Source: an uncultured Anaerolineales bacterium (GTDB lineage Bacteria > Chloroflexota > Anaerolineae > B4-G1 > SLSP01). From it: a DNA stretch of 64,000 nucleotides. Shown piece by piece: positions 4,319 to 33,167 of this stretch. How positions within the stretch are numbered: position 1 is the first letter of the stretch; each line of letters begins with the position of its first letter. The translations under genes and the position numbers were made by a program. The notes under the pieces were generated by a model, which saw only the letters and a program-made list of their open reading frames with translations, was not told where the DNA came from and did not search any database. Location of the stretch: positions 83,380 to 147,379 of the forward strand of contig CAZDDI010000003.1 of the NCBI GenBank assembly GCA_964504195.1, in the 5' to 3' direction.

Positions 4319-4539
4319 AGCTACTTCCTATAGTGACTAGTGAGCAGTTCGTCGAGAGATGGAGAAATTACTTCTCGTTGCTCATCGCTTACTGCTCACC
4401 TTGTGGTACTTCTCATTCCTTCTTCTCTATGCTATAATTTCCTGTGGATTTCACAAGTGAGGGGCTTCTACAATTAGGGTGACAAAGTTACCTCTTGTGA
4501 TGTTGGATTTGCGATTTACCGATTTTCAAGGGAGTGTTA

Positions 4540-5174
4540 TGTTCAATCTTGACCCACAAACCATTTTGCCGTCGTTGGCGATTGTACTACTCGCCATTCC
4601 CATCCACGAGTGGGCGCACTGTTGGGCAGCTTATATGCTAGGCGATCCTACGCCGGGTAGCGAGGGCCGGCTTACGCTCAACCCTTTGCTCCACCTCGAT
4701 CCTATCGGGACGCTGATGATTTTTGTAACCGGCTTTGGCTGGGGCCGCGCCGCGCGCGTCAATCCCTATCAGATGTGGCGCGTGAAAAATCCGCGCGTCG
4801 GGATGGCAATTACGGCCTTTGCCGGCCCTTTCTCCAACATTGTGCTGGCGCTGTTCTTTGCCTTACCGTTTCGCTTGGGTTTAATCAATCCGCAACAAGC
4901 AGGCTTCTTAACCAATTTTCTTTACTATATTATTGTGATCAATGTTGGCCTGGCGATGTTCAATTTGCTCCCTATCCCCCCGCTAGATGGATCGCGTATC
5001 TTGGCCGGTTTTGCCCCACCCGCTGTTGCCGATTTCATCGAAAGCCTTGAACCGGCTGCGCCCGTTATTTTAATGGTTGTGTTATTTTTGTTGCCGATGG
5101 TAGGGCTTGATCTGATCAATCTGTTACTCCGCCCGGCGATGACCTTCATGTTGCAGGCAATTTTCTGGTGGTAA
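4540..5174 (+). CDS. Site-2 protease family (M50) membrane zinc metalloprotease
   Basis: It has multi-TM hydrophobic segments, an HEWAH (HExxH) motif and an LNPLLHLDPIGT motif. A GGGAG RBS precedes an ATG at 4540. Confidence 0.7.
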
Positions 5175-5680
5175 ACCGCGCCCGTCCCGGCCATCGCATT
5201 ACGCAGTTTTTCGCTACTTTGTTCGCGCCGCTTTTGCCGGTTGATACAGCGTATGCGGCTGTTCAGCTCTCTCCGGTTCTGTTGACGTTGTTCCAACGTA
5301 TGGCCCGTGCCGAGCAACGGCACGGCATCGCGCTCTGCCGTCGGTTGGCGGAGCAAGGACACACTACCCCGGATTTACTGGCAGCGGCGCTACTCCATGA
5401 TGTGGGCAAGCTGTGCGCCCCACCGCGCCTCTGGGAACGGGTGTGGGTCGTACTGGCGGAAGCGTTCGCGCCGGAGCGTGCCGCGCGCTGGAGCGCCAGC
5501 ACGTCCCCGCGCTGGTGGCAACGCGCATTGGTGGCACGGCGTCAACATGCCGCCTGGGGGGCAGAACTGGCCGCCGAAGCCGGTGCAACGGCCCGCACCG
5601 TCTCCCTGATCCGCACCCACCACGACCCGCCCGGCGATGATGCAGATTTGCGCGCGTTACAAGTGGCCGACGAAACGTAA
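5168..5680 (+). CDS. HD-domain phosphohydrolase-like protein
   Basis: It carries an LLHDVGK HD motif. The start is uncertain (GTG at 5168 overlapping the M50 stop). Confidence 0.5.
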   Translation: MVNRARPGHRITQFFATLFAPLLPVDTAYAAVQLSPVLLTLFQRMARAEQRHGIALCRRLAEQGHTTPDLLAAALLHDVGKLCAPPRLWERVWVVLAEAFAPERAARWSASTSPRWWQRALVARRQHAAWGAELAAEAGATARTVSLIRTHHDPPGDDADLRALQVADET

Positions 5681-5723
5681 ATTTCAAGCTGCGGTTCATG
5701 CGCCTGGAGCAAAGGATACCCCT

Positions 5724-6575
5724 ATGAAAAACTTCGCCGTGTTGCAACTTTCGGGCTGCGCGGGATGTGAAGTCTCGCTCCTCAACGCCGATGCCTGGAT
5801 CAAGGACTACCGCCTGCTCTACATGCCGCTGGTGGTCTCTGCCCATGATGTGCCGGATGTGGATGTGTTGCTCATCAGCGGCGGGGTGCGCACGGATGAA
5901 GACCTCTACAAATTGCGGCGGGCGATCCACCACGCGCAGCAGGTCGTCGCCGTCGGCACCTGCGCCATCTCCGGCGGCGTCGCCAACCTGGGCGACCGCG
6001 ATGAGGTGCGCGCGCTCTTCATGGCCCACGCTGAAGAGCATCACGACCTGCCGCGCCTGCTGCCGCGCTCCCATCCCATTGATGCCATCGTGGAGGTGGA
6101 TCGCTACCTGCCCGGCTGTCCGCCTACGCCGGAGCTCTTCATGGCCGTGCTCTCCGATCCCGATGCGTTTGTGGCCGGGCGCACCGTCTGCCACGAGTGC
6201 GGGCGCAAGAAGCTCAAAGATATGCGCCCGCAAAAATTGCTTGGCTTCCAGCAAGGCCATGTTGACCCGGACATCTGCCTCATCAATCAGGGCTATCTTT
6301 GCATCGGCTCCTCGACGCGGGGCGGTTGCCGCGCCCCCTGCACGCGCGCGGGTCACCCCTGCGTGGGTTGTCGCGGCCCTTCGGATGCGTTCATCGAGAA
6401 GGAATCCGAGGCCTGGTTCACCAGCATCCAGCGCGTCTTCGCCGCCATGACCGACGTGCCGGAGGAAGACCTCACCGCTGGGCTACGTTCTCCGCAAATG
6501 GCCCTGTTCCTCTTCCAGTTCTCCGATTACGCTGGCGGCGGGCGTCCCGCGCGCCTGAAAGAGAAGGTGCTGTGA
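5724..6575 (+). CDS. [NiFe]-hydrogenase small subunit (NuoB-like 20 kDa fold + Cys-rich FeS region), cytoplasmic
   Basis: MKNFAVLQLSGCAGCE...LPGCPPTPE is the hydrogenase small-subunit / NADH-dehydrogenase 20-kDa signature. A C-terminal region carries about 8 Cys. There is no twin-arginine signal. The stop overlaps the large-subunit start (TGATG). Confidence 0.8.
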   Translation: MKNFAVLQLSGCAGCEVSLLNADAWIKDYRLLYMPLVVSAHDVPDVDVLLISGGVRTDEDLYKLRRAIHHAQQVVAVGTCAISGGVANLGDRDEVRALFMAHAEEHHDLPRLLPRSHPIDAIVEVDRYLPGCPPTPELFMAVLSDPDAFVAGRTVCHECGRKKLKDMRPQKLLGFQQGHVDPDICLINQGYLCIGSSTRGGCRAPCTRAGHPCVGCRGPSDAFIEKESEAWFTSIQRVFAAMTDVPEEDLTAGLRSPQMALFLFQFSDYAGGGRPARLKEKVL

Positions 6576-7885
6576 TGACCACATTGACTTTTCCCCTCAG
6601 CCGTATCGAAGGCCACGCGCGCGTGGTGATCGAAGTGCGCGAAGGCGCGGTGCTGTCCGCTCATTTCCAGGCCACCGAGCTGCGCGGGTTCGAGTACCTC
6701 ATCAAAGGCGCACCGGCGGAGCAAATGCCGGTCATCGTGCCGCGGATCTGCGGCGTTTGTTCGACTGCGCATCACGTCGCCGCCGTCAAGGCGCTGGAAG
6801 ACGCCTACGGCATCGAGCCGCCGCCGCTGGCGTTGCAGATCCGCGAGCTGTTGATGCTGGGCCAGTTGATTCAGAACCAGGCCACGTCGCTGTTCATCTT
6901 CACCATGCCCGACCGGTTGGGCGTGGCGAGTCTCTTCCAGGTGGATGCGGCCAGCGAGGCTGAGGCCGCATCTGGTATAGCCGTGCGCGCGCTGCAAGTC
7001 CGCAAGGCCGGCACCGATCTCATCGGGGTGGCCGGCGGACAATTCATCCACCCGGTCAAGGCCGTGATCGGCGGAGTGACGAGCGGCATCACGCCGAGCG
7101 CCGCCGCCCAGATGCGTGAGCAGTTGCAAGCCGCGCTCCCTATCGCCTGCGAGCTCTTCGATTATTACTGGGAGACCTCGGTAGCGCTGGGCGAGCGGTT
7201 GGGCACCTGGGGCGATGACGAACCGGCTTGTTACATCTCCGCCGTCTCCGGGCTGCGCCCCAACTTCTACGGTGACGCTATCCGGCTGGTGGGGTGTGAG
7301 GGTGATTCGTGTGCGCTCTTCCCGGCGCGGCATTTCCGCGAATATCTGAGCTACGACGACACCGATTACAGCTACGCGGCCAAATCCAGCTACCAGGGCA
7401 ATGTTCTGCGGGCCAACAGCCTGGCGCGCATCAACATCGTTGAGCAGCTGGGGACGCCCTGCGCTGATCGTTACCTTAAACAATTCAAGGCGACATTTGG
7501 CTCGCCCGCCCACGCGATTCTGCTCTTCGACCTGGCGCGCGGCATCGAACTGGTCTACGCGCTGGAGCGGGCCATCGAGCTGCTGGCCGCGCCGTTGGAT
7601 GTAGGCCCGGAAGCCGTGCCGTACACCCCCCGCGACGGCGAGGGTTACGGGCTGGTCGAAGCCCCGCGTGGGCCGCTCATCCATCACTACCGTATCGAAA
7701 ACGGCCTGATAGCGCAAGCCGAATTCATCATCCCTACCGTGCATAACGTGCTCGCCATCGAGCGTGCGCTGCGTGTGGCGGCGAACCGCTACATCACGGC
7801 AGATAGCGTCAACCTGGAGCTGGAGCGCGCGGTCGGGCGCGTTGTGCGGGCCTTCGATCCGTGCATTGCCTGTGCGACACACTAG
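6575..7885 (+). CDS. [NiFe]-hydrogenase large subunit; terminates at the His of DPCIACATH (no cleavable C-terminal extension)
   Basis: The N-terminal motif is RICGVCSTAHH and the C-terminal motif is DPCIACATH*. The protein is 437 aa and translationally coupled to the small subunit. Confidence 0.85.
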   Translation: MTTLTFPLSRIEGHARVVIEVREGAVLSAHFQATELRGFEYLIKGAPAEQMPVIVPRICGVCSTAHHVAAVKALEDAYGIEPPPLALQIRELLMLGQLIQNQATSLFIFTMPDRLGVASLFQVDAASEAEAASGIAVRALQVRKAGTDLIGVAGGQFIHPVKAVIGGVTSGITPSAAAQMREQLQAALPIACELFDYYWETSVALGERLGTWGDDEPACYISAVSGLRPNFYGDAIRLVGCEGDSCALFPARHFREYLSYDDTDYSYAAKSSYQGNVLRANSLARINIVEQLGTPCADRYLKQFKATFGSPAHAILLFDLARGIELVYALERAIELLAAPLDVGPEAVPYTPRDGEGYGLVEAPRGPLIHHYRIENGLIAQAEFIIPTVHNVLAIERALRVAANRYITADSVNLELERAVGRVVRAFDPCIACATH

Positions 7886-8020
7886 TGTCCTGCGGTATGG
7901 CCGTTCCAAGAATTAAAACCGTTCACCTTGCTCGGCGTGGATTGTCAAATCCACGCCTCTGAGCTACACAGGGCCCGGGAATCGCTGGAGTTAGCAATCC
8001 AGCGAGAGCAGGATGCGCCG

Positions 8021-8053
8021 TTCGCGTGCCCGCGAAGCCGCCGCTTCGCGCTA
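8021..8053 (+). terminator. Hairpin CGCGAAGC-cgcc-GCTTCGCG followed by a T-rich tract
   Basis: This is a perfect 8-bp stem with the T-rich tract CTATATCTATTTTC displaced 3'. The same stem sequence recurs at 18005-18024. Confidence 0.25.
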
Positions 8054-8088
8054 TATCTATTTTCAAGGAAACAGGAAAGGAGGCGCGG

Positions 8089-11001
8089 ATGCGCTGTTCG
8101 CAATGCGGCCAAGAGTGGCCGGAGACCTACATAGGTTGCCCTGAATGTTTCATCCCCTTTAGCGTCACCGCTTCCGGCGAGCGGGGTATCGCTATTGGCG
8201 GCAACGCTCATAATAACACCTTCAACCTCGGCGATACTTATGTATCGCCCGATGCTCCACCCGAAGAACTGCTCCACGCCTATTACCGCTCACTGGCCGC
8301 AGAGTGCGCGCGGCTGCCGCTGGGCGTGGTGGATCCCAAATTCGCTGCGCCGGGCCGCGAGGGGGAAGTGAGCCTGCACCAGGTCTACGTGGGGCTGGAT
8401 GTGGTCGTCCCCGTGCGCGAGGAAACCGAAGACACCCATGCTTGGGGACTGCGCCTGGCGCGCGGCGAGGGCGAGGGCCGCATGCCGTTGCTTGAAGCTT
8501 TGGCTGCGCCCGCCGCGATGCGCGCTGTGCTCCTGGGCGATGCCGGTTCCGGCAAGACCACCTTCGTCAACTACCTGGTCTACCGGCTGGCTGCTGCCGC
8601 CAGCGCCGGGGATGTTCACGTCGAAGATCTGCCGGCGGCATTCCAGGGCTTGTGGCCCGTACGCCTGCTGCTGCGTGAGGTAGCAACTCACATGCCGGCC
8701 GCGGTCACTTGCGGCACCGCGACCATGTTGTGGGAGGCGCTCCAGGCAGATATAGCCAGCCGGTTGGGGGCGGTGGCGGCGGAACGCCTGCTGCCCTACA
8801 TGCAGGCGCGAGTGTTGCGACGCGGCGGTTTCTTACTGCTGGATGGCCTGGATGAAGTGCCCGAAGCCGGACGGCGGCGCAAGTGCCTGCTGGAAGCGTT
8901 GCAAGCCCTGGCGGATAGCCTGCCCGCCGGTGCGCGGGTGCTGCTCACCGCGCGCCCCTACGCCTACGCTGACCCCGCCTGGCAACTAGGTGATTTCCCC
9001 ATCCTGGCGCTGGCGCCCTTTGATGAAACGCAAGTGGAACGCTTTGTCGCCCGCTGGTATCAGGCAGTGCGCCCGGCGTTGGGGTGGGATGCGGCGGCCG
9101 CCGCGGCGCGGGGTGCGCAGTTGACCCAGGCCTTGCAGGAGCGGACATACCTGGCAGACCTGGCCTCGCGCCCGTTGCTCCTCACCTTGATGGCGACCCT
9201 GCACAGCAGTTGGGGGCAGCTGCCGGAGGATCGCGCTGATCTGTACGAGGAATCGGTCAAATTGCTGCTTTCACGCTGGCAGCGGGGCCGCCTGGTGCGC
9301 GAGGGACAGCAAATAGTGACCGAACCGGGCATCGCGGCGGCGTTGGGTTGGGGGGAAGCCCGCATTCGCGCGGCGTTGGAGAAACTGGCGTTTAACAGCC
9401 ACCAGCGGCAGGGCAGCGAGGCCGAGCGTGAGGATGCCCCCGCCGATATTCCCCAGGCGGCGGTGTTGGCGGCCTTTGCCGGCGTGCCTGAAAACGTCAA
9501 TCCGTGCGTGGTGCTCACCTATCTGGAACAACGCGCCGGGCTGCTCATGGGCCGCCGCGAAGAGGTCTATGTCTTTCCGCATCGCTCCTTTCAGGAATAC
9601 CTGGCGGCGTGTTACCTGAATGCCGACCCGGAATCGGCCGGCCGCTTGCGGAAACTGGTCTATGCCGACCCGGCCTGGTGGCGGGAGGTTTTCCTGCTGG
9701 GGGTGGGCAAGAAACGGCTGGGCAGTCTGGGCGATGCCGTGAATACCGTGAATACCCTCTTGCCGTGCGATGTAGAGAAATGCGCCCCGCCGCAACCGGC
9801 GGATTGGCGCGCGGCGGTGCTGGCCGGCAAAGCCGTGTTGGAATTGCGCTTGCGCGAGCGGGGCGCGGCGCAGGAGCATAGCGCGGTGTTGGTGGAGCGC
9901 GTGCGCGACTGGCTGGCGGCTCTGGTGACGGGTGGGCAGTTGCCGGCCCCAGAACGCGCCGAGGCCGGTGACGTGCTGGGCGCGCTGGGCGACCCGCGTC
10001 CGGGGGTGGGCGTAAGGGCGCACGGCCCGGTGGGGGCGCACGGCCGTGCGCCCTTACCCGATATTGTCTGGTGTGCCGTGCCCGCCGGGTCGTTCCTGAT
10101 GGGAAGTGTGGCGGATGAACCGGAGACCTATCCTGATGAAAAGCCCCAACATGCGGTGGACTTGCCCGCGTTCTATCTCAGCCGGTATTTGGTGACCAAC
10201 GCGCAGTTCCGGCCCTTTGTGGAGGGGGATGGCTACCGCAACCCGGCTTACTGGACGCCGGAAGGTTGGGCCTGGCGGCAGGGCGCGGAACCGGATTTGA
10301 CGCCATTGGAGGGTATGAGCGAAGATTGGCAACGTCAATATCGTGAATGGTTGGCCGGGCGCTCGCTTGAAAAGCGCGGTTGCCCGTTTTATTGGGAGCA
10401 CCCACAATTAAGTGTGCCTAATCGCCCGGTGGTGGGGATTACCTGGTACGAAGCGGCGGCGTATGGCCGGTGGCTGGAGGAACAGTTGCGAGTTACGGGT
10501 TCGGAGTTGCGCGTGTGGCAGGAGAATGAATGCACAATTCGCAACTTGAAACTCGGCACCTTCAACGTGCAACTGCCTAGCGAAGCGGAGTGGGAGAAGG
10601 CGGCGCGGGGTGAAGATGGCCGACGGTATCCCTGGGGCGGGGAGTGGCAGGAAGATTGCGCGAATACGGAAACCACCGAGTTGGGCCAGACCAGCGCCGT
10701 GGGGTTATTCCCGGCGGGGGTTAGTCCTTATGGATGCCTGGATCTGGTGGGCAATATGTGGGAGTGGACGCGGAGTCGTTGGGGGTGCAATGTGTTGCGC
10801 CCGGATTTTGGATATCCGTATACTGCTAATGATGGCCGTGAAGCTGAAAGTAGCGCTGCTGTGCCGGTGCTTCGCGGCGGCTCCTGGCTCAACAGTCAGT
10901 GGAGCGCCCGGTGCGCTTCCCGCAACAGGAACGTACCTGCCAACTTCATTGACGATGTCGGGTTTCGGGTGCTGTTGTCCCTGGGGGATGCTGATTTCTG
11001 A
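8089..11001 (+). CDS. STAND/NACHT-family NTPase with N-terminal zinc ribbon and C-terminal FGE-sulfatase (SUMF1/EgtB-like) domain
   Basis: The domains in order are:
- Zn ribbon: CSQCG...CPEC.
- Walker A: GDAGSGKTT.
- Walker B: LLLDGLDEV.
- NACHT winged-helix motif: FPHRSFQEYLAACYL.
- C-terminal FGE motifs: YLVTNAQF, GITWYEAAAY, LPSEAEWEKAARG, YPWGG, GNMWEWT, RGGSW, VGFRV.
A strong AAAGGAGG RBS precedes the ATG at 8089. Confidence 0.8.
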   Translation: MRCSQCGQEWPETYIGCPECFIPFSVTASGERGIAIGGNAHNNTFNLGDTYVSPDAPPEELLHAYYRSLAAECARLPLGVVDPKFAAPGREGEVSLHQVYVGLDVVVPVREETEDTHAWGLRLARGEGEGRMPLLEALAAPAAMRAVLLGDAGSGKTTFVNYLVYRLAAAASAGDVHVEDLPAAFQGLWPVRLLLREVATHMPAAVTCGTATMLWEALQADIASRLGAVAAERLLPYMQARVLRRGGFLLLDGLDEVPEAGRRRKCLLEALQALADSLPAGARVLLTARPYAYADPAWQLGDFPILALAPFDETQVERFVARWYQAVRPALGWDAAAAAARGAQLTQALQERTYLADLASRPLLLTLMATLHSSWGQLPEDRADLYEESVKLLLSRWQRGRLVREGQQIVTEPGIAAALGWGEARIRAALEKLAFNSHQRQGSEAEREDAPADIPQAAVLAAFAGVPENVNPCVVLTYLEQRAGLLMGRREEVYVFPHRSFQEYLAACYLNADPESAGRLRKLVYADPAWWREVFLLGVGKKRLGSLGDAVNTVNTLLPCDVEKCAPPQPADWRAAVLAGKAVLELRLRERGAAQEHSAVLVERVRDWLAALVTGGQLPAPERAEAGDVLGALGDPRPGVGVRAHGPVGAHGRAPLPDIVWCAVPAGSFLMGSVADEPETYPDEKPQHAVDLPAFYLSRYLVTNAQFRPFVEGDGYRNPAYWTPEGWAWRQGAEPDLTPLEGMSEDWQRQYREWLAGRSLEKRGCPFYWEHPQLSVPNRPVVGITWYEAAAYGRWLEEQLRVTGSELRVWQENECTIRNLKLGTFNVQLPSEAEWEKAARGEDGRRYPWGGEWQEDCANTETTELGQTSAVGLFPAGVSPYGCLDLVGNMWEWTRSRWGCNVLRPDFGYPYTANDGREAESSAAVPVLRGGSWLNSQWSARCASRNRNVPANFIDDVGFRVLLSLGDADF

Positions 11002-11916: not shown

Positions 11917-12139
11917 GGCTTACTGTATTGGTGCGTGTGCAGGAAAAACTCGTGTCTGAAGCAAAGGGGAGTCCACGGAAAAACCGCCAGCCGCTCACGT
12001 TCAGATGCACAATGCTAAGAAATTTCTGCTTCTAACGGATTCTCTTGAATATCAAAGATGCTGAATGAAGCGGATATTTGTTACTTGTTCACAATTGCAC
12101 CTGTGTTATACTCACGTTACAATTTAATAAGACTGTGCA

Positions 12140-12300
12140 TTTCCGAGTCTCTCTACCTACCGGCCAGTAGCCCAGGGGAGCGAGACCATTGGGTGTAGCG
12201 GGAAACGGCTACGCCTCCCGTATTTGAAAAGGAAGTGCGCCGCAGTGCCATAATACCTTTCCCCTAGGCAACAGCTTCATTGCTTGGGGGCAGGTAGTTA
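12140..12300 (+). ncRNA. Structured 5' leader / riboswitch candidate (possibly cobalamin-type) upstream of the BtuF/FecB-like ABC importer
   Basis: It shows nested helices: CTACCTACC...GGCAGGTAG, GTAGCC...GGCTAC, and a GGGAAAC-loop hairpin. The blocks AAGGAAGUGCG and CAGUGCCAU resemble the E. coli btuB leader. An intrinsic terminator follows just before the RBS. Confidence 0.35.
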
Positions 12301-12436: not shown

Positions 12437-13990
12437 ATGTCGAAAATATGGAAACAACTGTGGATAGGGCTGTTATTGGTGGTGATATTGGCGAGCTGTG
12501 CGCCCACGCCGACCACGGCGCCGCCCGAACCCTCACCTGCCACGCTCAGCCCGGCGACCCCAGAGACGCCCGCTGCAACTTTGCAAGTAAGTGGCGCGAT
12601 GGCCTCAGAACGCGCCTTTACGACGGAAGACCTCACGGCGCTGGGACTGCAAGAGTCCTTGTATACCAACCGTGATGGAGAATCTACGACCTATACGGGC
12701 GTCTCCATAGCTCTCTTGCTAAACACTGTGACGCCAGCCGCCGACGCTACCACCCTGGTCTTAGTGGCTAGTGATGGTTATGAGGCGCAAGTCCCGCTCG
12801 CTGATGCACTGGTCTGTGCGGAGTGCATTGTGGCATTTGAAGCGGATGGTAGCTTCCGCGCCGTATTGCCGGACTTCCCCGGTAATGTCCAGGTGCGCGA
12901 TTTGGTCGCGCTCCAGGTGCTGAGCGCTGCCGAAGCTCAACCCGAACCGCCCCCCACTTCCGAGGACACCATTCCCAATGATGGGCCGGTGACGATTACC
13001 GATGCTGCCGGGCGCACCGTGAGTCTGGAACAACTCCCGCGGCGCATTGTGGTCGTCGGGCGCGGCCCGTTTATGGCCCTCCATCTACTCTACATGTTCC
13101 CTGAAGGCCGTACCCGGTTGGTCGGGGCAGAAAGTCGCAGCGCCACCCCTAGCGATTTTCTACCTTACGTCCAACCGGATTTTCTGGAGCGCATCGTGGG
13201 CATGGCCGCCAATCCCAACGCGGAACAGATTGCTACGCTTGAGCCAGATTTGGTGATAATCAAGAGTGTCGCATTGGAGCAAATAGGCGAGTCCCTGGCG
13301 CAGGTCAACATTCCGGTCGTGTACCTGGGGCTGGAAACACCGGAGCAATTCTTCCAGGATGTGACCAATCTGGGGGCGTTGTTGGGCAATCCCACCCGCG
13401 CGCAGGGGATCATCGCTTTCTATCAAGCGCGCCTGGAGCGCATCGAAGCCGGCGTCGCGGATATTCCTGAGAACGAACGCCCGCGCGTGTTGCTGTTGGA
13501 GCATTCTGACCGGAGCGGGGAAGTTGCAGGCCGGGTGCCTCCGTTGGTGTGGATGCAGACCATTCAAGTCGAGGCCGCCGGCGGCGTCCCGGTGTGGCGC
13601 GAGGCTGTGCAAGTGACGGATGGCTGGACGGTGGTGAATTTCGAACAGATTGCCGCCTGGGATCCGGATAAAATTTTCATGGTGATCTCATACCAGCTCG
13701 ATCCCCAAGAGGTGATAGATGGTTTCAAAGCGGATCCGCAATGGCGTGCTCTGAGCGCGGTGCAAAATGAAGAGCTATACGCCTTCCCCGGAGACATCTT
13801 CGGCTGGGACACCCCCGAAGCCCGGTGGTTGCTCGGCGTGAACTGGTTAGCCACCCGTCTGCACCCCGAGGTTTTTGCGGATTTAGACCTCGAAACGGAG
13901 ATTTACACCTTTTTTGGCGAACTCTATGACATGGAACGGGATGTGATAGATTCTGCTATCTTGTCCCAAGTGTATCTGGATGTCCATTAG
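12437..13990 (+). CDS. ABC transporter periplasmic substrate-binding lipoprotein, FecB/BtuF (class III SBP) family, with extra N-terminal domain
   Basis: It has a signal peptide plus lipobox (LLLVVILASCAP). The C-terminal half (RIVVVGRGPFM...EPDLVIIKS...) matches iron-siderophore/cobalamin binding proteins. The roughly 200-aa N-terminal domain is of unknown function. Confidence 0.7.
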   Translation: MSKIWKQLWIGLLLVVILASCAPTPTTAPPEPSPATLSPATPETPAATLQVSGAMASERAFTTEDLTALGLQESLYTNRDGESTTYTGVSIALLLNTVTPAADATTLVLVASDGYEAQVPLADALVCAECIVAFEADGSFRAVLPDFPGNVQVRDLVALQVLSAAEAQPEPPPTSEDTIPNDGPVTITDAAGRTVSLEQLPRRIVVVGRGPFMALHLLYMFPEGRTRLVGAESRSATPSDFLPYVQPDFLERIVGMAANPNAEQIATLEPDLVIIKSVALEQIGESLAQVNIPVVYLGLETPEQFFQDVTNLGALLGNPTRAQGIIAFYQARLERIEAGVADIPENERPRVLLLEHSDRSGEVAGRVPPLVWMQTIQVEAAGGVPVWREAVQVTDGWTVVNFEQIAAWDPDKIFMVISYQLDPQEVIDGFKADPQWRALSAVQNEELYAFPGDIFGWDTPEARWLLGVNWLATRLHPEVFADLDLETEIYTFFGELYDMERDVIDSAILSQVYLDVH

Positions 13991-15005
13991 GGCGCAAGCA
14001 GCCGCCGCGCGTTCCCGGCGTTTCCGGCGGCAATTATGGAGTCTGGCAGGGTTGCTATTGCTGACCATTTTGCTCTCGCTGCTTCTGGGCCGCTATCCCG
14101 GCCCATACTTTACGCCCCTGGCGACCTTGCGCGAGAATGCGTTAGCACGCACCGTGGTGCTGAACTTGCGCCTCCCGCGCATTTTGGCCGCCGTTTTTCT
14201 GGGAGCGACGCTGGCCGCTGCCGGCACGACCTTTCAGCTCATCTTCCGCAATCCGCTGGTGGATGCTGGCTTTTTAGGGGTTTCACAAGGCGCGGCCTTT
14301 GGCGCTTCCCTGGCGATTGTTTTTCTGGGCGGCACGGCTGCGGCGGTGCAGGGGAGCGCGGCAGCCTTTGCTTTTGTGGGGCTTGCCGCTAGCTACCTGA
14401 TGGCGCAGCGCTTGCGCTTGGGAGATTGGGTGCTCCGTTTGGTCATGGCGGGAATTGGAGTCTCCGCCTTCTATGCTGCCGGCACCGGGGTGATCAAATA
14501 TCTGGCCGATCCCTTAAAGCAACTGCCAGACATCACCTTTTGGTTGTTGGGCGGCTTGTGGGCTATCACCTGGCGCGATATCCTGCATATCTTGCCCGTC
14601 GTGGCGCCGGCGCTCATCATCATCTACTTGATGCGCTGGCGGCTGAATTTACTCGCGCTTCAGGATACTACGGCTTTTGCGTTAGGGGCAGTGCCGGGGC
14701 GGGAACGGCTGGTCATGCTGATAGCCGCGACGGCTGCGACCGCCGCGGTGGTCTCCAAAGCCGGGCAAATCGGTTGGGTGGGCCTGATTGTACCCCATAT
14801 CGCCCGCCGGGTGCTCGGCGCGGATGCGCAATTGACCGTACCTGGCGGGATGTTCATCGGCGCGTTGTTTGTGCTGGGTTGTGATAATCTGGCGCGCACG
14901 GTGCTCTCCGGTGAAATCCCGTTGGGCATCCTCACCTCACTCATTGGCGCATTGGTTTTCTTTAGCTTGCTGTTGCGCAATGACCTGGAGCTGAAAAAAC
15001 GATGA
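13980..15005 (+). CDS. ABC transporter permease, FecCD/BtuC family
   Basis: About 9 TM helices with a typical FecCD fold. It overlaps the upstream SBP gene. Confidence 0.8.
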   Translation: MSIRAQAAAARSRRFRRQLWSLAGLLLLTILLSLLLGRYPGPYFTPLATLRENALARTVVLNLRLPRILAAVFLGATLAAAGTTFQLIFRNPLVDAGFLGVSQGAAFGASLAIVFLGGTAAAVQGSAAAFAFVGLAASYLMAQRLRLGDWVLRLVMAGIGVSAFYAAGTGVIKYLADPLKQLPDITFWLLGGLWAITWRDILHILPVVAPALIIIYLMRWRLNLLALQDTTAFALGAVPGRERLVMLIAATAATAAVVSKAGQIGWVGLIVPHIARRVLGADAQLTVPGGMFIGALFVLGCDNLARTVLSGEIPLGILTSLIGALVFFSLLLRNDLELKKR

Positions 15006-15778
15006 CCCCCGCAGTATCACTCACAGACCTGGCTTTTCGCTATACTCCGACCGCGCCCGATGTGGTGCAAAACATCACCCTGGACTTGCCCTCACGCGCA
15101 GTGACAGCAATTTTAGGCCCTAATGGTTCAGGAAAAACCACGTTGCTGCATCTCATCTTGGGGCTGCTCACGCCACAGCAGGGGCGCATCGCGTTGAATG
15201 GTACACAGCACACCGGCTACGCGCGTCGGGAGGTCAGTCATATTCTGGGATTGGTACCCCAAGAAGAACCGCCAGCGTTCAACTTGAATGTGCTGGAAAC
15301 GGTGCTGTTAGGCCGCGCCCCCTATCTCAAACTGCTCCAGCGGCCCAGCGAACGTGATTACACGACCGCTTTTCGCTCATTAGAGCAGGTCGGCATCGCG
15401 GATTTATGGGCGCGCCCGGTGCCCGCGTTGAGCGGCGGCGAACGACAGTTAGCCGTGTTAGCCCGCGCCTTGACGCAAGAACCGGACATTCTGTTGTTGG
15501 ATGAACCGACTTCACATCTGGACGTGAACAACGCGCGCCAGATTTTAAGCCTCATGCGTGACTTACGAACGCAAGGCAAAACCATTGTCTTTACCACACA
15601 TGATCCTAATGCGGCTGCCGCTACGGCGGATTATGTGGTGCTGATGCGTCAGGGCCGGGTGTTGTATGCCGGCACCGCCCACGAAACTTTGACCGGAGAA
15701 CATCTGAGCGCCACCTATGATGTGCCCATTGAAGTGGTGCGCGATCATCTGGGCCGTTTATTGGTGGTAGTCTATTAA
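15002..15778 (+). CDS. ABC transporter ATP-binding protein (FecE/BtuD-like)
   Basis: Walker A GPNGSGKTTLL, signature LSGGERQ, and Walker B LLLDEPTSHLD. There is a 4-nt overlap with the permease. Confidence 0.85.
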   Translation: MTPAVSLTDLAFRYTPTAPDVVQNITLDLPSRAVTAILGPNGSGKTTLLHLILGLLTPQQGRIALNGTQHTGYARREVSHILGLVPQEEPPAFNLNVLETVLLGRAPYLKLLQRPSERDYTTAFRSLEQVGIADLWARPVPALSGGERQLAVLARALTQEPDILLLDEPTSHLDVNNARQILSLMRDLRTQGKTIVFTTHDPNAAAATADYVVLMRQGRVLYAGTAHETLTGEHLSATYDVPIEVVRDHLGRLLVVVY

Positions 15779-18069: not shown

Positions 18070-19842
18070 ATGGTTTACCGCGCACATGTCTTGATCTGCG
18101 GGGAACCCCGTTGTGTTGAAAAGGGCGCGCGGGATGTTGAGGCGGCGCTGACCCAAAAAATACAGGAGCTGGGCCTGGAAAACGAGGTCCAAATTCTGGA
18201 AGCCAGCGCGCTAGGGCATGGCGAACAAGGCCCGGAACTGGTGGTCTACCCCGAAGGCGTCCATTACGTCAACCTGCGCCCGGAAGACGCCACGCGCATT
18301 GTTGAAGAGCATCTGTTCAAGGGACGCCCCATCGCGGAATTGCAGTACAAAGAACCGCCTTCGGAGCCGCTGCCCGCGCCATCCCACAAAGAAATCCGCG
18401 TGGTGCTGGATAAAATCGGCAAAATTGATCCCGAAAATATTGATGATTACATCGCGCTGGATGGCTATGCCGCGCTGGCGAAAGTGCTGGGCGGGATGTC
18501 CCGCGACGAGGTGCTGGTCGTGCTCAAAACGTCCGGGCTGCGCGGGCGCGGCGGGGCGGGCTTCCCTACCCACCTCAAGTGGAGTTTCGCCAAGAACGCG
18601 CCCGGCGATGTGAAATACGTCATCTGTAACGCTGATGAGGGCGACCCCGGCGCGTTCATGAACCGGCGCGTGCTCGAAGGCGACCCGCACGCCGTCATCG
18701 AAGGTATGGCGATTGCGGCGTATGTCATCGGCGCGCGGCAGGGCTATATCTATGTTCGCGCCGAGTACCCCATCGCCATCAGCACTTTGCGCGTGGCATT
18801 GGCACAGGCCCGCGAGTATGGTCTGCTGGGGGAAAACATCCTCGACACTCATTTTAGTTTCGATCTGGAAATCCGCATGGGCGCGGGGGCCTTCGTCTGT
18901 GGCGAAGAGACCGCGCTGATGAAATCCATCGAAGGCGTGCGGGGGATGCCGACCACCCGCCCGCCCTTCCCGGCCACGTCGGGCCTGTGGGGCAAGCCCT
19001 CCAACATCAACAACGTAGAGACCTACGCCAACGTGCCGCAGATTTTGCTCAAGGGCGGCGCGTGGTTTGCCTCGATGGGCACGGAGAAGAGCAAGGGCAC
19101 CAAGACCTTTGCGGTGGCCGGAAAAGTGGCGCGCACTGGCTTGATCGAAGTGCCGCTGGGCATCACCATTCGCGAAATCGTCTACGATGTGGGCGGCGGT
19201 GTGCTCGATGGCAAGAAGTTCAAGGCCGTGCAGACCGGCGGCCCGATGGGCGGTTGTATCCCAGAGAAGTATCTTGACCTGCCGGTGGATTACGAAAACC
19301 TGGCGGCCGTCGGCTCGATCATGGGTTCGGGCGGCTTCGTCGTGATGGATGAAGAAACCTGTATGGTGGATATCGCTCGCTTCTTCATGGAGTTCACGCA
19401 GGAAGAATCGTGCGGTAAATGTGTGCCGTGCCGCGTGGGCACCCGGCGGATGTTGGAGATTCTCGAACATATCTGCGCGGGCAAGGGCAAGCCCGGTGAT
19501 ATCGAGATGCTGGAAACCCTGGCCGAGAAGATCGGTTTTGGCTCGTTGTGCGGGCTGGGTCAGGGAGCGCCAAATCCGGTGCTCAGCACGCTAGAGCACT
19601 TCCGTGACGAGTACGAGGCACACATCTACGAGAAGCGCTGCCCGGCGAAGGTCTGCAAGGCCCTGATCGAGTACCGCATCGAGGCCGAGACCTGTATCGG
19701 CTGCACACGCTGCGCTCGTAACTGCCCGGTCAACGCCATTAGCGGCAAGGCCAAACAGGTGCATGTGATTGATCCTGAGACCTGCATCCGCTGCGGTATC
19801 TGCGCGCAGGTTTGTCCGGTAGACGCCGTGAAAGTTGAGTGA
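18070..19842 (+). CDS. NuoF-like NAD(P)H-binding flavoprotein subunit (HoxF/HndC/HydB-type) with N-terminal Trx-like domain and C-terminal 2x[4Fe-4S] ferredoxin domain, copy 1
   Basis: The motifs are GRGGAGFPTHLKWSF (NADH/FMN site) and ESCGKCVPCRVG ([4Fe-4S] N3). The C-terminal CIGCTRCARNCP and CIRCGICAQVCP are two ferredoxin motifs. Confidence 0.85.
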   Translation: MVYRAHVLICGEPRCVEKGARDVEAALTQKIQELGLENEVQILEASALGHGEQGPELVVYPEGVHYVNLRPEDATRIVEEHLFKGRPIAELQYKEPPSEPLPAPSHKEIRVVLDKIGKIDPENIDDYIALDGYAALAKVLGGMSRDEVLVVLKTSGLRGRGGAGFPTHLKWSFAKNAPGDVKYVICNADEGDPGAFMNRRVLEGDPHAVIEGMAIAAYVIGARQGYIYVRAEYPIAISTLRVALAQAREYGLLGENILDTHFSFDLEIRMGAGAFVCGEETALMKSIEGVRGMPTTRPPFPATSGLWGKPSNINNVETYANVPQILLKGGAWFASMGTEKSKGTKTFAVAGKVARTGLIEVPLGITIREIVYDVGGGVLDGKKFKAVQTGGPMGGCIPEKYLDLPVDYENLAAVGSIMGSGGFVVMDEETCMVDIARFFMEFTQEESCGKCVPCRVGTRRMLEILEHICAGKGKPGDIEMLETLAEKIGFGSLCGLGQGAPNPVLSTLEHFRDEYEAHIYEKRCPAKVCKALIEYRIEAETCIGCTRCARNCPVNAISGKAKQVHVIDPETCIRCGICAQVCPVDAVKVE

Positions 19843-19854
19843 CAAGGAGGCAGC

Positions 19855-20343
19855 ATGGATAAAGCGTTGACCCAAACGATACATCGGGCGCTCACGCGCC
19901 ACGCTAACAGTCAGGAATCTCTGGTGGAAATGCTGCGCGAGATCAACGCCGAGCTAGGCTATTTGAGTGCGGAGACGTTGGGCGGGTTGGCCGATGCGCT
20001 GAAATTGCCGCGCAGCCAGGTGCTCAGCGTTGCTAGCTTCTACAGTATGCTCGATTTGGAACCGCGCGGGACGCACGTCATCAAGCTGTGCCAGGACGCG
20101 CCGTGCCACGTCGCCGGCGGACAGGAGATTTGGGAGACCCTGGAGCGTGAGTTGGGGATCAGCTTTGGCGCGACTACACCGGATGGCAAATGGACGCTGC
20201 TGACGACCAGCTGCATCGGCGCGTGCGCGGTCGGGCCGGTGATGATGGTGGATGACGACATCTACGGCAATCTCACCCCGGAGCGGGTGCGGGAGATTCT
20301 CGCGCAGGTTGCCGACCAAGACCGGGCAGGAGGTAGAACATGA
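19855..20343 (+). CDS. NuoE-like [2Fe-2S] subunit (HoxE/HndA-type)
   Basis: CQDAPCHVAGG...TTSCIGACAVGPV is the NuoE 2Fe-2S cysteine pattern. A GGAGG RBS is present. Confidence 0.85.
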   Translation: MDKALTQTIHRALTRHANSQESLVEMLREINAELGYLSAETLGGLADALKLPRSQVLSVASFYSMLDLEPRGTHVIKLCQDAPCHVAGGQEIWETLERELGISFGATTPDGKWTLLTTSCIGACAVGPVMMVDDDIYGNLTPERVREILAQVADQDRAGGRT

Positions 20344-21920
20344 TACGCGCGCATGTGTTGATTTCCGGGGATGCGCTGAGCCTCTCGCGCGGCGCAGAGG
20401 AAACCCGGCTTGCCATCGAGGCAGAGCTCTCGTTTCTGGGGCTAGATAAGGAAGTGCTGGTGAGCTACACTAGCCAGGTAGAGCGCACGGATGAGTTGCC
20501 GATGGTGATGGTCTTCCCAGAGGGGATCCGGTATGGCTCAGTTCATCCGGAGGACGGTGCGTACATTGTCCAGGAGCATCTCTACAAAGGGCGTATTGTT
20601 GAACATTTGCGGTTGCCTCCGGAAATACTCTCTGGTCACATTGTACATATACCTGGCAAACTTGGCGCGCTCTACGCGCAGAAGCGCGTGGTCTTGCGCC
20701 GTGCCGGTCTGATTGATCCCACTAGTATTGAAGACTACATCGCCCACGACGGCTACTTTGCGCTGGGCAAAGCCCTCACCGAGATGCAATCGGCTGACGT
20801 GCTGCAAGCGGTAAAAGATTCCGGCTTGCAAGGTCGCGGCGGCGCGGGTTTCCCCACCGGCTTGAAATGGAGCTTCGCAGTGAACCAGCCGGGCGAGAAG
20901 TACATCGTCTGCAACGCGGATGAATCCGAGCCGGGCACGTTCAAGGATCGCCTGATCCTGGAGGGCGACCCGCACGCCGTGTTGGAAGGCATGGCCCTCG
21001 CCGGGTATGCCTGTGGCGCGGCGCAGGGCTGGATTTACATTCGCGGTGAGTATGTGCAGGCGCGCGAACGGCTCGAGCACGCCATCAAGCAGGCGGAAGA
21101 GTACGGGCTGCTGGGCGACAACATCATGGAGACCGGGTTCTCCTTCCACATCCATGTCCACGCGGGCGCGGGCGCGTATGTCTGCGGTGAGGAAACGGCT
21201 CTGCTGGAAAGCCTCGAAGGCAAACGCGGCACGCCGCGCATCCGTCCGCCGTATCCCACAGTGCGCGGTTTTCGCGATCAACCGACGCTGGTCAACAACG
21301 TGGAGACGCTAGCGAATGTGCCGGCCATTATCCTCAACGGGTCGGACTGGTTCCGCTCCATTGGGACGCACACCAGCCCTGGCACCAAGGTCTATACCAT
21401 GCTGGGCGATGTCAACATCACCGGTTTGATCGAAGTGCCGATGGGCATCACTCTCCGCGAAGTCATCGAAATCTACGGCGGCGGCGTGAAGAACGGCAAG
21501 GCCTTCAAGTGCGCGCAGACGGGCGGCGCTTCCGGCAGCATCATCCCGGCAGCGTTGCTGGATGTGCCGATGGATTTTGCTTCGATGCAGGCGCAGGGCG
21601 CGTCCCTGGGCAGCGGTGCGCTTCTGGTGTGTGACGAGGATACCGATGTGGTAGACCTGGCTTATGTGCTGGTGCGCTTCTTTGCAACTGAATCGTGCGG
21701 CAAGTGTGTGCCCTGCCGGGTGGGGTCAGCGCAAATGTTGGAGGCGCTGGAACGGCTGCGCAAGGGCTATGCCAAACCTGCCGATTTGCAGCGGCTTGAA
21801 GAGATTGCCACCCATGTTCAGGAAACCTCATTCTGCGGCCTGGGGCAGGCCGCGCCAGTGCCGATTCTTACCGGGCTACGCTTCTTCCGCGCCGAGTTCG
21901 AGGCCCGCGTACAAGCCTAG
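20340..21920 (+). CDS. Second NuoF-like flavoprotein subunit (no C-terminal ferredoxin domains; degenerate Cys-less N-terminal Trx-like domain)
   Basis: GRGGAGFPTGLKWSF and ESCGKCVPCRVG motifs. ATGA overlap with the upstream gene. Confidence 0.85.
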   Translation: MIRAHVLISGDALSLSRGAEETRLAIEAELSFLGLDKEVLVSYTSQVERTDELPMVMVFPEGIRYGSVHPEDGAYIVQEHLYKGRIVEHLRLPPEILSGHIVHIPGKLGALYAQKRVVLRRAGLIDPTSIEDYIAHDGYFALGKALTEMQSADVLQAVKDSGLQGRGGAGFPTGLKWSFAVNQPGEKYIVCNADESEPGTFKDRLILEGDPHAVLEGMALAGYACGAAQGWIYIRGEYVQARERLEHAIKQAEEYGLLGDNIMETGFSFHIHVHAGAGAYVCGEETALLESLEGKRGTPRIRPPYPTVRGFRDQPTLVNNVETLANVPAIILNGSDWFRSIGTHTSPGTKVYTMLGDVNITGLIEVPMGITLREVIEIYGGGVKNGKAFKCAQTGGASGSIIPAALLDVPMDFASMQAQGASLGSGALLVCDEDTDVVDLAYVLVRFFATESCGKCVPCRVGSAQMLEALERLRKGYAKPADLQRLEEIATHVQETSFCGLGQAAPVPILTGLRFFRAEFEARVQA

Positions 21921-21975
21921 CAGCGCTACCTGAAGCTGCTTCACAGAAGATTTATTTCAAGGAGTGAAGGAACTC

Positions 21976-23673
21976 ATGAGCGAGATACATTTGAACATTA
22001 ACGGGCAGGACGTTGTGGCGCAGAGCGGCCAGACGGTGCTGGAGGCTGCGAAGTCTGCCAGCATTGAGATTCCGGTGCTTTGTCATCATCCGGCGCTCAC
22101 CAACTGGGGCGCATGCCGCATGTGCGTGGTCGAAGTGGAAGGGATGCGCACGGTGCAGACTGCCTGTACGCTTCCGGTGTCCGAGGGTATGAAGGTCACA
22201 ACGCATACCGAAAAAACCACCAGCCTGCGCAAGTTCGTGCTGGAGCTGCTGTTCTCTGAGCGCAACCACTATTGCATGTACTGCCAGATGAGCGGTGATT
22301 GTGAGCTGCAAGATCAGGCTTACGCGCACGGTCTGGATCACTGGACTTATCCGCGCCCTTACGAGAAATTGAGCGTGGATGCGTCACGCAAATACTTCAT
22401 CATGGATCACAATCGCTGTATCCTCTGCTCGCGCTGTGTCCGTGCGTGTAGCGAGGTGGCGGCGAATCACACCCTGAACCTGCGCAATCGCGGGGCCAAG
22501 ACGATGATTGTGGCCGACCTGGATGTGCCGTTTGGCGAATCCAGCTGCGTGGAGTGCGGCTCCTGTTTGCAGGTGTGTCCCACCGGCGCGCTGGTGGATG
22601 CCAAGAGCGCCTACGGTGGGCGCGAGAAGGACGTGACGCACACCATCACGACCTGTATGCAGTGCAGCATTGGCTGTGAGCTGGATGTGGTGACGCGCTA
22701 CAGCCGCCTGCTCCGCGTGGACGGCGTCTGGGGGGCTGACCCCAACGGCGGCCTGCTGTGTGTGGATGGCCGCTTCAAGCCGCTGTACGAAGAGCGCAAG
22801 CGCATCACCGCCCCGATGCTCCGCAAGGATGGCAACCTGGTCGAGGCTTCCTGGGATGAGGCGCTCGCGCTGGTCGCCGAGAAGCTCCAGGGCGGCGAGT
22901 GCCAGGGCCTGGCCGCGTGCGCCACCACCAACGAGGCGTTGGCGGCCTTCGCGCAGCTCATCGCCAAAGTGGGTGGCAAGGCCGGGCGGCTCGAACCGGT
23001 CGCCCCGACGTTGGGCTACGGCACACCCGCCAAAGTTACGGACGTGCTCGACGCCGATTTCATCATCGTGGCCGGGGCGCAACCGCTGGATTACCAGCGC
23101 GTCGTCGGCTACTTCATCCATCGTGCTGCCGACAAGAAAGTGCCGGTCGCGGTCATCAGCGACTCAGAGAACGCCCTCAGCCCGCGCGCAGCTATGACGG
23201 TCGCCTCAGCGCAGGCAGGTGTAGTGGCGCAGGCCGCTGCCGCCGCCGCGAAGGTCGTGCTGGTCTACAGCGTGGGCCTCAAGCCGGAAGTGATTGCCGC
23301 GCTCAAGCCGCTGGGCGACAAAGTCCACTTCCTGGCGCTCGACCCGGCGCGGAATGGCAAGGGGGCGGAAGCTGCAGGTCTCAAGCCGCAAGCCCCAAGC
23401 AAAGTGGATGTGGGATATTTCCTGTTGGGTGAACAACTGCTGGATGAGACGCTCCAGCCGAAGGCGGGCTTCAAGGTGGTGCAGGCTGCGTACTTCTCGC
23501 CGCTGGCGGAGCAGGCCGATGTGGTGCTGCCCACGCCGATTTGGTCGGAGCGTAGCGGGCACATCACCAATCTCGATGGGACGGTCAAGCCGTTGAATGT
23601 GGTGTTGCCCGCGCCCGCCGGCGTCCGCGACGAGGTGGAAGTCCTGGCGCAGCTGGCCGCACTGTTGGCATAA
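21976..23673 (+). CDS. NuoG/HoxU-like FeS subunit (N-terminal 2Fe-2S + 4Fe-4S domains, truncated molybdopterin-oxidoreductase-like C-terminus lacking a catalytic domain)
   Basis: The N-terminus is INGQDV...CHHPALTNWGACRMCVVEV, a 2Fe-2S ferredoxin-type sequence. A His(Cys)3 cluster follows, then CxxCxxC ferredoxin motifs and CMQCSIGC (the MopB N-terminal 4Fe-4S). Confidence 0.8.
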   Translation: MSEIHLNINGQDVVAQSGQTVLEAAKSASIEIPVLCHHPALTNWGACRMCVVEVEGMRTVQTACTLPVSEGMKVTTHTEKTTSLRKFVLELLFSERNHYCMYCQMSGDCELQDQAYAHGLDHWTYPRPYEKLSVDASRKYFIMDHNRCILCSRCVRACSEVAANHTLNLRNRGAKTMIVADLDVPFGESSCVECGSCLQVCPTGALVDAKSAYGGREKDVTHTITTCMQCSIGCELDVVTRYSRLLRVDGVWGADPNGGLLCVDGRFKPLYEERKRITAPMLRKDGNLVEASWDEALALVAEKLQGGECQGLAACATTNEALAAFAQLIAKVGGKAGRLEPVAPTLGYGTPAKVTDVLDADFIIVAGAQPLDYQRVVGYFIHRAADKKVPVAVISDSENALSPRAAMTVASAQAGVVAQAAAAAAKVVLVYSVGLKPEVIAALKPLGDKVHFLALDPARNGKGAEAAGLKPQAPSKVDVGYFLLGEQLLDETLQPKAGFKVVQAAYFSPLAEQADVVLPTPIWSERSGHITNLDGTVKPLNVVLPAPAGVRDEVEVLAQLAALLA

Positions 23674-23683
23674 GGAGTCACGC

Positions 23684-24238: not shown

Positions 24239-24246
24239 AACATAGT

Positions 24247-25671: not shown

Positions 25672-25778
25672 CTTTTACAAATTCCACGCGAAGCCTTGGC
25701 GGACTGAGTCTACCAGGGCTTTTGCTTTTCCAATTTAGTGATATACAATGCGCTACAGGCGAAAGTAAGGGGAGTAAT

Positions 25779-30975: not shown

Positions 30976-30995
30976 CCGAGATTGCGAGGGATAGG

Positions 30996-33133: not shown

Positions 33134-33167
33134 GCTTACATCGAATTATTGAGTTAAGGAGGACTGC

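Follow-up and report, generated by a model that had tools for sequence, protein, structure and literature searches.

What kind of enzyme is encoded by a two-gene [NiFe]-hydrogenase whose catalytic subunit ends exactly at its C-terminal histidine, and does the missing extension mark it as a sensor of H2? This question is raised by a gene pair at positions 5724-7885 of a 64,000-nucleotide stretch of DNA (referred to here as the window) from an uncultured Anaerolineales bacterium (assembly GCA_964504195.1, contig CAZDDI010000003.1, positions 83,380 to 147,379 of the forward strand). A first-pass annotation, prepared from the sequence alone, had interpreted the missing extension, together with a neighbouring gene for an HD-domain protein, as a possible sign of H2 sensing. 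The analysis described here leads to a different picture. The pair belongs to a clade of group 3 hydrogenases in which the tail-less state is fixed, and it probably encodes a stand-alone enzyme that would mature without proteolysis, while a role in sensing is unlikely.

The tail-less gene pair and its tailed paralogue

The two genes and the elements that define their borders are the following.

5724..6575, + strand: hydrogenase small subunit, 283 amino acids, cytoplasmic, three predicted [4Fe-4S] clusters
6573..6577, + strand: TGATG, overlap of the stop and start codons of the small- and large-subunit genes, read directly from the sequence
6575..7885, + strand: hydrogenase large (catalytic) subunit, 436 amino acids, ending at His436, no C-terminal extension
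7883..7885, + strand: TAG stop codon right after the terminal histidine codon, position kept in 81 loci

The small-subunit gene is read from the ATG at 5724 rather than from the start at 5637 given in the list of open reading frames (ORFs), because homologues begin with M-K-x-F-A-V-L-Q; the sequence AAAGGA lies 7 nucleotides upstream of this codon. The N-terminus of the protein is MKNFAVLQLSGCAGC, and its first cluster cysteine is already residue 12, which leaves no space for a twin-arginine translocation (Tat) signal; no signal peptide is found in the small subunit. At the junction, the small-subunit stop codon (TGA, 6573-6575) and the large-subunit start codon (ATG, 6575-6577) share one base, and a Shine-Dalgarno-like stretch, GAGAAGGTG, is located ahead of the large-subunit gene at about 6560-6568. 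In related loci (81 at the species level), this junction is mostly TGAGATG or comparably tight.

Both products are readily assigned to hydrogenase families, as the small subunit matches Pfam Oxidored_q6 (PF01058) with 86.6 bits and the large subunit NiFeSe_Hases (PF00374) with 127.8 bits against a cut-off of 25.8. The large subunit carries the motifs R57-ICGVC-STAH66 and D428-PCIACATH436, which give four cysteine ligands, and its C-terminus reads ...RAFDPCIACATH (AFDPCIACATH), followed directly by TAG. The first-pass description of a two-gene cytoplasmic group-3-type [NiFe]-hydrogenase is borne out. The overlap in TGATG and the upstream HD gene with its LLHDVGK motif are likewise present in the sequence, and the reported end at DPCIACATH, without a cleavable extension, is not only read there but also conserved throughout the clade.

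The same window encodes a second hydrogenase, which belongs to the same fold family and whose large subunit is 31 % identical to that of the tail-less pair.

18070-25671: NAD-linked group 3d-type hydrogenase, plus a protease gene at 27559-28068

The large subunit of this paralogue (24247-25671) ends with DPCLSCSTH and a 25-residue tail, AIGQMPIQIELIGSDGAVLDVLKRD, and is accompanied by a dedicated maturation protease gene, whereas the tail-less pair has neither alongside. ORF 27559-28068 is assigned as a hydrogenase maturation protease by TIGR00072 (76 bits against a cut-off of 47.45); Pfam at E 1e-3 gave no match for it. The earlier statement that the only maturation protease gene of the window lies in the operon of the tailed paralogue is therefore correct. 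In addition, the 3d-type enzyme has NuoE-, NuoF- and NuoG-like partners and a 213-amino-acid, single-cluster small subunit of the HoxY type. Beside the tail-less pair there is no NuoE, NuoF or NuoG gene, and its own small subunit has three clusters, which places it outside group 3d.

The stop codon and the fixed tail-less state

The position of the stop codon was followed at increasing evolutionary distance. The closest proteins are represented by the 120 best matches from a collection of 5.8 billion sequences, with 71-100 % identity and lengths of 431-457 amino acids. The histidine is the terminal residue in 119 of them, and the remaining one ends with ...ATQH. A second search contributed a further 98 clade members at 56-74 % identity, likewise without a tail, and among its additions is a 433-amino-acid subfamily with 56-64 % identity to the large subunit from the window. 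For comparison at the species level, contigs from one genome per species were used; 186 stretches encode a relative, and the best 80 of these (64-77 % amino-acid identity) were retained. No frameshifts occur across these best 80 loci.

Across the species-level loci, 81 in number, the stop comes directly after the same residue, although the codon itself differs (TGA in 40, TAG in 25 and TAA in 16). The peptides that hypothetical read-through would add are unrelated both to one another and to known tails. Upstream of the stop the proteins are highly constrained, with 164 of the 436 large-subunit positions and 76 of the 283 small-subunit positions conserved at 97 % or more (81-82 sequences). The tail-less state is fixed across the whole clade, that is, in about 220 proteins and 81 species-level loci. 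The large subunit is made directly at the length that other large subunits attain only after endoproteolysis.

It might be argued that the stop results from faulty sequencing or assembly, or that it reflects recent truncation of a decaying gene. Nothing was found in favour of such an artefact, and its probability is practically negligible. An identical protein is present on several independent contigs, the stop position is shared far beyond this organism by means of three different codons, and the degree of conservation reflects strong purifying selection. A tail hidden behind a sequencing error is ruled out by the conserved position of the stop, the use of three codons and the unconserved peptides downstream. 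The first-pass annotation had named two circumstances that would speak against its interpretation, namely a catalytic group whose members normally carry extensions and an erroneous stop. The groups closest to the pair do normally carry extensions, but the stop is no sequencing error.

Affiliation with group 3

The group was assigned from the nearest relatives in PDB and NCBIfam together with a neighbour-joining tree. By sequence, the large subunit has its best solved relatives in the MvhA subunit of Mvh-Hdr (5odc_F, E 1.7e-64), HydL of the bifurcating HydABCSL enzyme (7t2r_D), VhuA, the 3d-type HoxH (5xf9) and the 3b-type SHI. The small subunit is closest to MvhG (5odc_E, E 2.4e-44; aligned over residues 4-227) and VhuG. 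An AlphaFold2 model of the large subunit, with a mean predicted local distance difference test (pLDDT) value of 89.2 and a predicted template modelling (pTM) score of 0.91, gives TM-scores of 0.90-0.91 to MvhA, HydL and HoxH and of 0.84-0.86 to SHI. The best NCBIfam models are those of VhuA (234.2 bits against a cut-off of 800) and VhuG (156.7 against 450), both matched below their cut-offs; the other large subunit of the window reaches 432 bits on the VhuA model.

Searched exhaustively, the representatives of clusters formed at 50 % identity show a sharply delimited family: the large subunit scores 628 bits with its own cluster, 368 with one sister cluster, and at most 257 (at most 38 % identity) with all else. 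A neighbour-joining tree built from 106 group 3 sequences gives the tail-less clade a bootstrap value of 98.5 %, and the clade joined with a tailed sister group one of 100 %. The pair belongs to a divergent, monophyletic clade of group 3, derived almost wholly from Anaerolineae. Of the best 80 species loci, 77 are labelled Anaerolineae, Chloroflexota or similar, including the isolate Longilinea arvoryzae.

The three exceptions are short contigs (3-11 kb); loci L058, L060 and L085, on contigs of this size, carry the pair but are binned into metagenome-assembled genomes (MAGs) of Desulfobacterales, Proteobacteria and Nitrospiraceae. These are probably mis-binned Anaerolineae contigs rather than cases of horizontal transfer.

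A clade of this kind has already been given a name. In a preprint, "group 3e" was proposed as a clade "unique to the Anaerolinea", with a large subunit proximal to groups 3c and 3d, consisting of one small and one large subunit only and devoid of accessory or electron-transfer subunits (bioRxiv 10.1101/2021.08.23.457424). The genes listed there as its context encode FGE-sulfatase, inositol monophosphatase, ADP-ribosylglycohydrolase, UDP-glucose 4-epimerase and peptidase M23 (bioRxiv 10.1101/2021.08.23.457424). The pair from the window comes from the same taxon, has the same two-gene make-up and the same position near 3c and 3d, and lies among the same unrelated neighbour families, with no difference in kind. 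By its sequence features it matches the description and the context list of the preprint, which would make it a member of group 3e. The locus is thus an ordinary member of an already-named, uncharacterised clade.

The text of the preprint does not contain the term "C-terminal extension", nor does it mention the missing tail, the variant with glutamine in place of the terminal histidine or the tailed sister clade. A literature search found the name "group 3e" for a hydrogenase clade in that one preprint only, and for tail-less group 3 enzymes or a characterisation of the clade it returned nothing beyond the same source. The search likewise found no mention of the terminal His-to-Gln change in Anaerolineaceae or of the relaxed "RGFE" glutamate, both of which are described below.

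The tailed sister clade and tail loss within group 3

The sister clade (P0122 and P0271-P0276) originates from MAGs of Actinobacteria and Candidatus Aquicultorales. It is 43-46 % identical to the tail-less clade, is likewise a stand-alone pair of one small and one large subunit, and shares with it the RICGVCSTAH motif and the C-terminal motif of the small subunit. In contrast to the tail-less clade, its members keep a tail of 7-24 amino acids past the histidine (for example, EIKIIRN or EVEIVAKR...) and have DLC in place of DPC; the "RGFE" glutamate is kept in all seven sister sequences. Since the sister pair is both stand-alone and tailed, the two-gene architecture is older than the loss of the tail, and this loss took place a single time, at the root of the Anaerolineae clade.

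Two further features of these clades were considered and set aside. The ORF downstream of the sister-clade pair (165-172 amino acids) was a candidate for the missing maturation protease; it was rejected because it has no NCBIfam match. The small-subunit motif LFLFQF...KVL is not special to the tail-less clade, as it is common to the sister clade and the KVL end also occurs in the other small subunit of the window.

The rest of group 3 has tails of 4-34 amino acids. Nine other full-length group 3 representatives of the 50 %-identity clusters also end exactly at the C-terminal histidine (P0181, P0184, P0198, P0222, P0223, P0243, P0253, P0255 and P0268); seven of them are sulfhydrogenase-like (3b-like) and two Vhu-like. 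Tail loss has thus occurred repeatedly within group 3. With these 3b-like and Vhu-like examples at hand, the missing tail is therefore not specific to sensors. The natural tail-less [NiFe]-hydrogenases listed so far are those of groups 2b and 2d, which are sensors, and of groups 4c, 4e and 4g (PMC7294309; see also PMC6769069), and it is the canonical Hyp system that matures such natural enzymes without a tail (PMC7294309).

Catalytic residues, clusters and the C-terminal metal site

All 18 clade sequences in the comparison share E12, R37, C59, C62, H66, R365, D428, C430 and C433 of the large subunit, as do seven sister-clade sequences, and the same nine residues are kept in nearly all other group 3 representatives. 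The four cysteines among them (C59, C62, C430 and C433) are invariant in 81/81 loci. The small subunit has conserved cysteines at positions 12, 15, 80, 132, 156, 159, 185, 193, 202, 206, 213 and 216, each present in every sequence that covers the position (82 sequences); C12, C15, C80 and C132 belong to the proximal cluster. These 12 cysteines would suffice for three [4Fe-4S] clusters, as in MvhG.

The extreme C-terminus is less uniform. In 21 of the 81 loci the terminal residue is glutamine instead of histidine (...DPCIACATQ), and it is still the last residue of the protein. The loci with terminal glutamine are from Anaerolineaceae, including Longilinea arvoryzae KOME-1, Brevefilum and Ornatilinea (L056, L057, L061, L065, L067, L069-L075, L077-L080, L082-L084 and L086); an example is the 3' end of the large-subunit gene at L084, at about 9309-9314. 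The second variable position is the "RGFE" glutamate, E40, encoded at 6692-6694 of the window. It is glutamate in 35 of the 81 clade loci and R, Q, D, S or another residue in the rest, whereas 77 of 81 other group 3 representatives keep it. We take residue 40 and the terminal histidine to be the side chains that bind the Mg/Fe ion beside the C-terminus, as in textbook structures of group 1 enzymes. A covariation scan of the terminal His/Gln against other positions found none that co-varies cleanly, and the changes at E40 and at the terminus are not strictly coupled.

Proposed function

The reading we favour, and consider somewhat more probable than all the others together, is that the pair forms a stand-alone, soluble, cytoplasmic [NiFe]-hydrogenase heterodimer which matures without proteolysis and passes its electrons to a partner encoded elsewhere. 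In such a scheme, the Hyp machinery would insert the NiFe(CN)2CO cofactor with no proteolytic finishing step, as is thought to happen in the natural tail-less groups 2b, 2d, 4c, 4e and 4g. At one locus, L032, hypA (85 bits) and hypB (266 bits) occupy 9321-10380 and begin 9 nucleotides past the large-subunit stop. This is the sole locus of the 81 in which hydrogenase maturation genes adjoin the pair, and it is the only direct link between the pair and the nickel-insertion machinery.

The heterodimer is read as a working hydrogenase because its catalytic residues and 12 cluster cysteines are conserved, and it would thus turn over H2. The distal cluster would exchange electrons with a partner that is not encoded beside the pair, for which the candidates are a low-potential carrier able to diffuse, for example a ferredoxin, and a complex whose genes lie elsewhere. 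In fermentative Anaerolineae, the enzyme could vent or recapture H2.

Several points weigh against this proposal. Nickel is missing from some group 1 and group 3d enzymes that were engineered to have no tail (PMC7294309), and tail-free maturation is therefore not guaranteed. The variability of residue 40 and of the terminal histidine could mean that the activity is altered or reduced. Moreover, the AlphaFold2 model of the small subunit is poor (pLDDT 45.9, 30 close homologues) and thus uninformative as to its C-terminal region and docking surface, and the ferredoxin-like carrier is a guess prompted by the absence of partner genes.

Gene neighbourhood

In the window, the pair is preceded by two genes in the same direction and bordered by two possible transcription signals.

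4410..4438, + strand: sigma-70-like promoter match upstream of the M50 gene (TTCTCA, 17-nucleotide spacer, TG-TATAAT; 10 of 12 positions)
4479..5174, + strand: M50-family membrane metalloprotease (Pfam Peptidase_M50, 46.7 bits)
5168..5680, + strand: HD-domain protein, 170 amino acids, with LLHDVGK; local context, no conserved part of the system
7934..7957, + strand: perfect 10-bp inverted repeat with a 4-nucleotide loop, 49 nucleotides past the large-subunit stop, without a T-run

The HD gene matches the Pfam HD family weakly (25.1 bits against a cut-off of 22, E 2.3e-5), and HDIG with 24 bits, below its cut-off. Its GTG start codon overlaps the stop codon of the M50 gene (GTGGTAA, with an overlap of 4 nucleotides), and the M50, HD, small-subunit and large-subunit genes form a co-directional series of four. 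The promoter-like site is the only one on the + strand in the scan of the window; it is a consensus match only, of which shuffled sequence contains 1.2 on average. The inverted repeat may be a terminator hairpin, at which the terminator scan made no call. Together, the promoter-like site and the hairpin suggest, at the level of consensus matches, a local four-gene transcript that begins with the M50 gene and runs to the large-subunit gene.

Directly downstream of the hydrogenase, positions 8026-11001 encode a 991-amino-acid fusion of a NACHT NTPase and a C-terminal FGE-sulfatase (SUMF1-like) domain, for which PADLOC gave no match.

None of these neighbours is retained with the pair. In a BLAST comparison with the ORFs of 86 loci, the HD, M50 and NACHT-FGE genes were found beside it only on contigs of the window organism itself and in 0/80 other genomes, which rules them out as functional partners. 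The gene tables of five independent contigs show different neighbours in each. When the ORFs flanking 80 loci were clustered, no neighbour family occurred in more than 16 loci. Pfam annotation of 131 immediate neighbour ORFs yielded Inositol_P 14 times, ADP_ribosyl_GH nine times and other families at most four times, and among 138 second and third neighbours no family exceeded five. Neither survey showed enrichment of any hydrogenase-related, kinase, regulator or HD family. The recurring neighbours, which are inositol monophosphatase, ADP-ribosylglycohydrolase and ComEC, reflect local synteny only, and an epimerase and a Peptidase_M23 gene flank the pair in the 433-amino-acid subfamily. The FGE-sulfatase of the window, Inositol_P, ADP_ribosyl_GH, the epimerase and Peptidase_M23 all agree with the context list of the preprint. 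Only the gene pair itself is conserved across contexts.

Alternative explanations

The first-pass interpretation corresponds to a regulatory hydrogenase, which would turn over H2 slowly and signal through a protein partner, here perhaps the HD protein. Several features are consistent with it. The pair lacks the C-terminal extension, as do the group 2b and 2d sensors (PMC7294309, PMC6769069); no electron-transfer subunits are encoded nearby; the HD gene, located upstream, probably shares a transcript with the pair in the window; and genes for PAS/GAF, GGDEF and response-regulator proteins turn up sporadically in the vicinity of some loci. The sensors HoxBC and HupUV (group 2b) are two-subunit, cytoplasmic and naturally tail-less, three features they share with the pair, and are matured by Hyp proteins without a protease. 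However, they belong to group 2 and have a histidine kinase and a response regulator as neighbours (HoxJ/HoxA, HupT/HupR), whereas the pair belongs to group 3 and has no conserved signalling partner nearby. The best group 2 structure, Huc (7utd), is matched with 78.8 bits over residues 5-175 only, compared with 221 bits over the full length for MvhA. Signalling families account for at most 2-3 of more than 130 neighbours (Response_reg 3/138, PAS or GAF 2/131), with no consistent partner among them. The histidine of the RIEGH motif, His14 in the large subunit from the window, presumably corresponds to Asp15 of the sensor HoxC, and it is kept in 17 of the 18 clade members sampled. In Ralstonia HoxC, this aspartate stands where standard enzymes have histidine (PMC10073562, citing Gebler 2007). 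With the group 3 affiliation, the retained His14 and the tail-less 3b-like and Vhu-like proteins, there is no support for reading the missing tail as a pointer to H2 sensing, or the HD gene, adjacent to the pair in the window organism only, as a signalling context. Regulatory function is accordingly very unlikely.

Another explanation is that the pair is Mvh-like (group 3c-type) and serves, as an H2-oxidising module docking in trans, a complex of the HdrA/MvhD type or another flavin-based bifurcating complex. Sequence and fold (TM 0.90) are matched best by MvhA and MvhG from the Mvh-Hdr complex, VhuA and VhuG lead among the NCBIfam models, and the small subunit resembles MvhG in its three clusters, in contrast to the HoxY-type subunit of the window with its single cluster. 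Hdr-linked 3c enzymes have also been reported in the same bacterial class (bioRxiv 10.1101/2021.08.23.457424). The cytoplasmic location, the three-[4Fe-4S] small subunit and the active-site motifs are all common to the pair and MvhAG/VhuAG (5ODC). Nevertheless, MvhA and MvhG are only about 28-30 % identical to the pair, and the deposited MvhA runs 25 residues past its histidine (473 amino acids, His 448), while the protein from the window stops at this residue. MvhAG has MvhD/Hdr partners, and there are none near the pair; Hdr and MvhD are not among the 25 commonest Pfam families in 269 neighbour ORFs from about 66 genomes, and none is found in the flanks within the window. The scores remain far under the VhuA and VhuG cut-offs (234 vs 800 and 157 vs 450), the clade stands well apart from all Mvh-like representatives (at most 38 % identity), and the preprint separates 3e from Hdr-linked 3c (bioRxiv 10.1101/2021.08.23.457424). 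Docking in trans is thus rather unlikely.

A bolder idea is doubtful and clearly unlikely as it stands. Tail loss, the terminal glutamine of about a quarter of the species and the no longer conserved "RGFE" glutamate may together reflect a broader rebuilding of the buried metal site at the C-terminus, which would have produced a lineage whose active site closes by itself, without either the protease or the canonical Mg/Fe site. The product would be a free two-subunit H2 module, either ferredoxin-coupled or redox-sensing. If this were true, the remodelled-site lineage would have a physiological role outside groups 3a-3d.

Significance

The clade is already named in the preprint. To the existing account, the analysis usefully adds that its tail-less state is fixed, that a tailed sister clade exists and that its C-terminal site is relaxed. 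A whole, widespread group 3 clade is tail-less, beyond the reviewed groups 2b, 2d, 4c, 4e and 4g (PMC7294309). The tail-less clade and its tailed sister provide a natural comparison for the role of the extension and its protease in cofactor insertion. Anaerolineae are abundant in digesters, sediments and mats. If the proposed function is correct, a soluble two-gene hydrogenase that needs neither a dedicated protease nor partner subunits would be an attractive minimal target for heterologous expression. The label that annotation pipelines currently attach to it is "F420-non-reducing hydrogenase". This label suggests a role of the methanogen type, linked to Hdr, for which the gene contexts give no support.

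Other features of the window

Further observations concern the surroundings of the tailed hydrogenase. Between its large-subunit gene and its protease gene, at 25572-27553, lie genes for an AAA_21/AAA_15 ATPase and a DUF4276 protein, which PADLOC reports as a candidate defence pair (HEC-01A, 498.6 bits; HEC-01B, 257.7 bits). This pair looks like a defence cassette inserted in the hydrogenase operon. Paralogous sets of genes for a NuoF-like protein (590 amino acids, with a 2x[4Fe-4S] tail), a NuoE-like protein and a NuoF-like protein are present at 18070-24238 and 29203-35897. The first set precedes the tailed hydrogenase and is accompanied by a 569-amino-acid NuoG-like protein bearing remnants of a molybdopterin domain; the second is followed by the alpha subunit of a formate dehydrogenase (TIGR01591, 850 bits). 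The operon of the tailed hydrogenase resembles HydABCSL-type bifurcating enzymes as much as the classical HoxEFUYH.

A riboswitch for the molybdenum/tungsten cofactor (RF01055, 63.8 bits with the gathering score set at 36) is located at 12132-12250, upstream of an ABC transporter operon at 12437-15778 (Peripla_BP_2, FecCD and ABC_tran). The formate dehydrogenase genes lie farther along the window than this operon.

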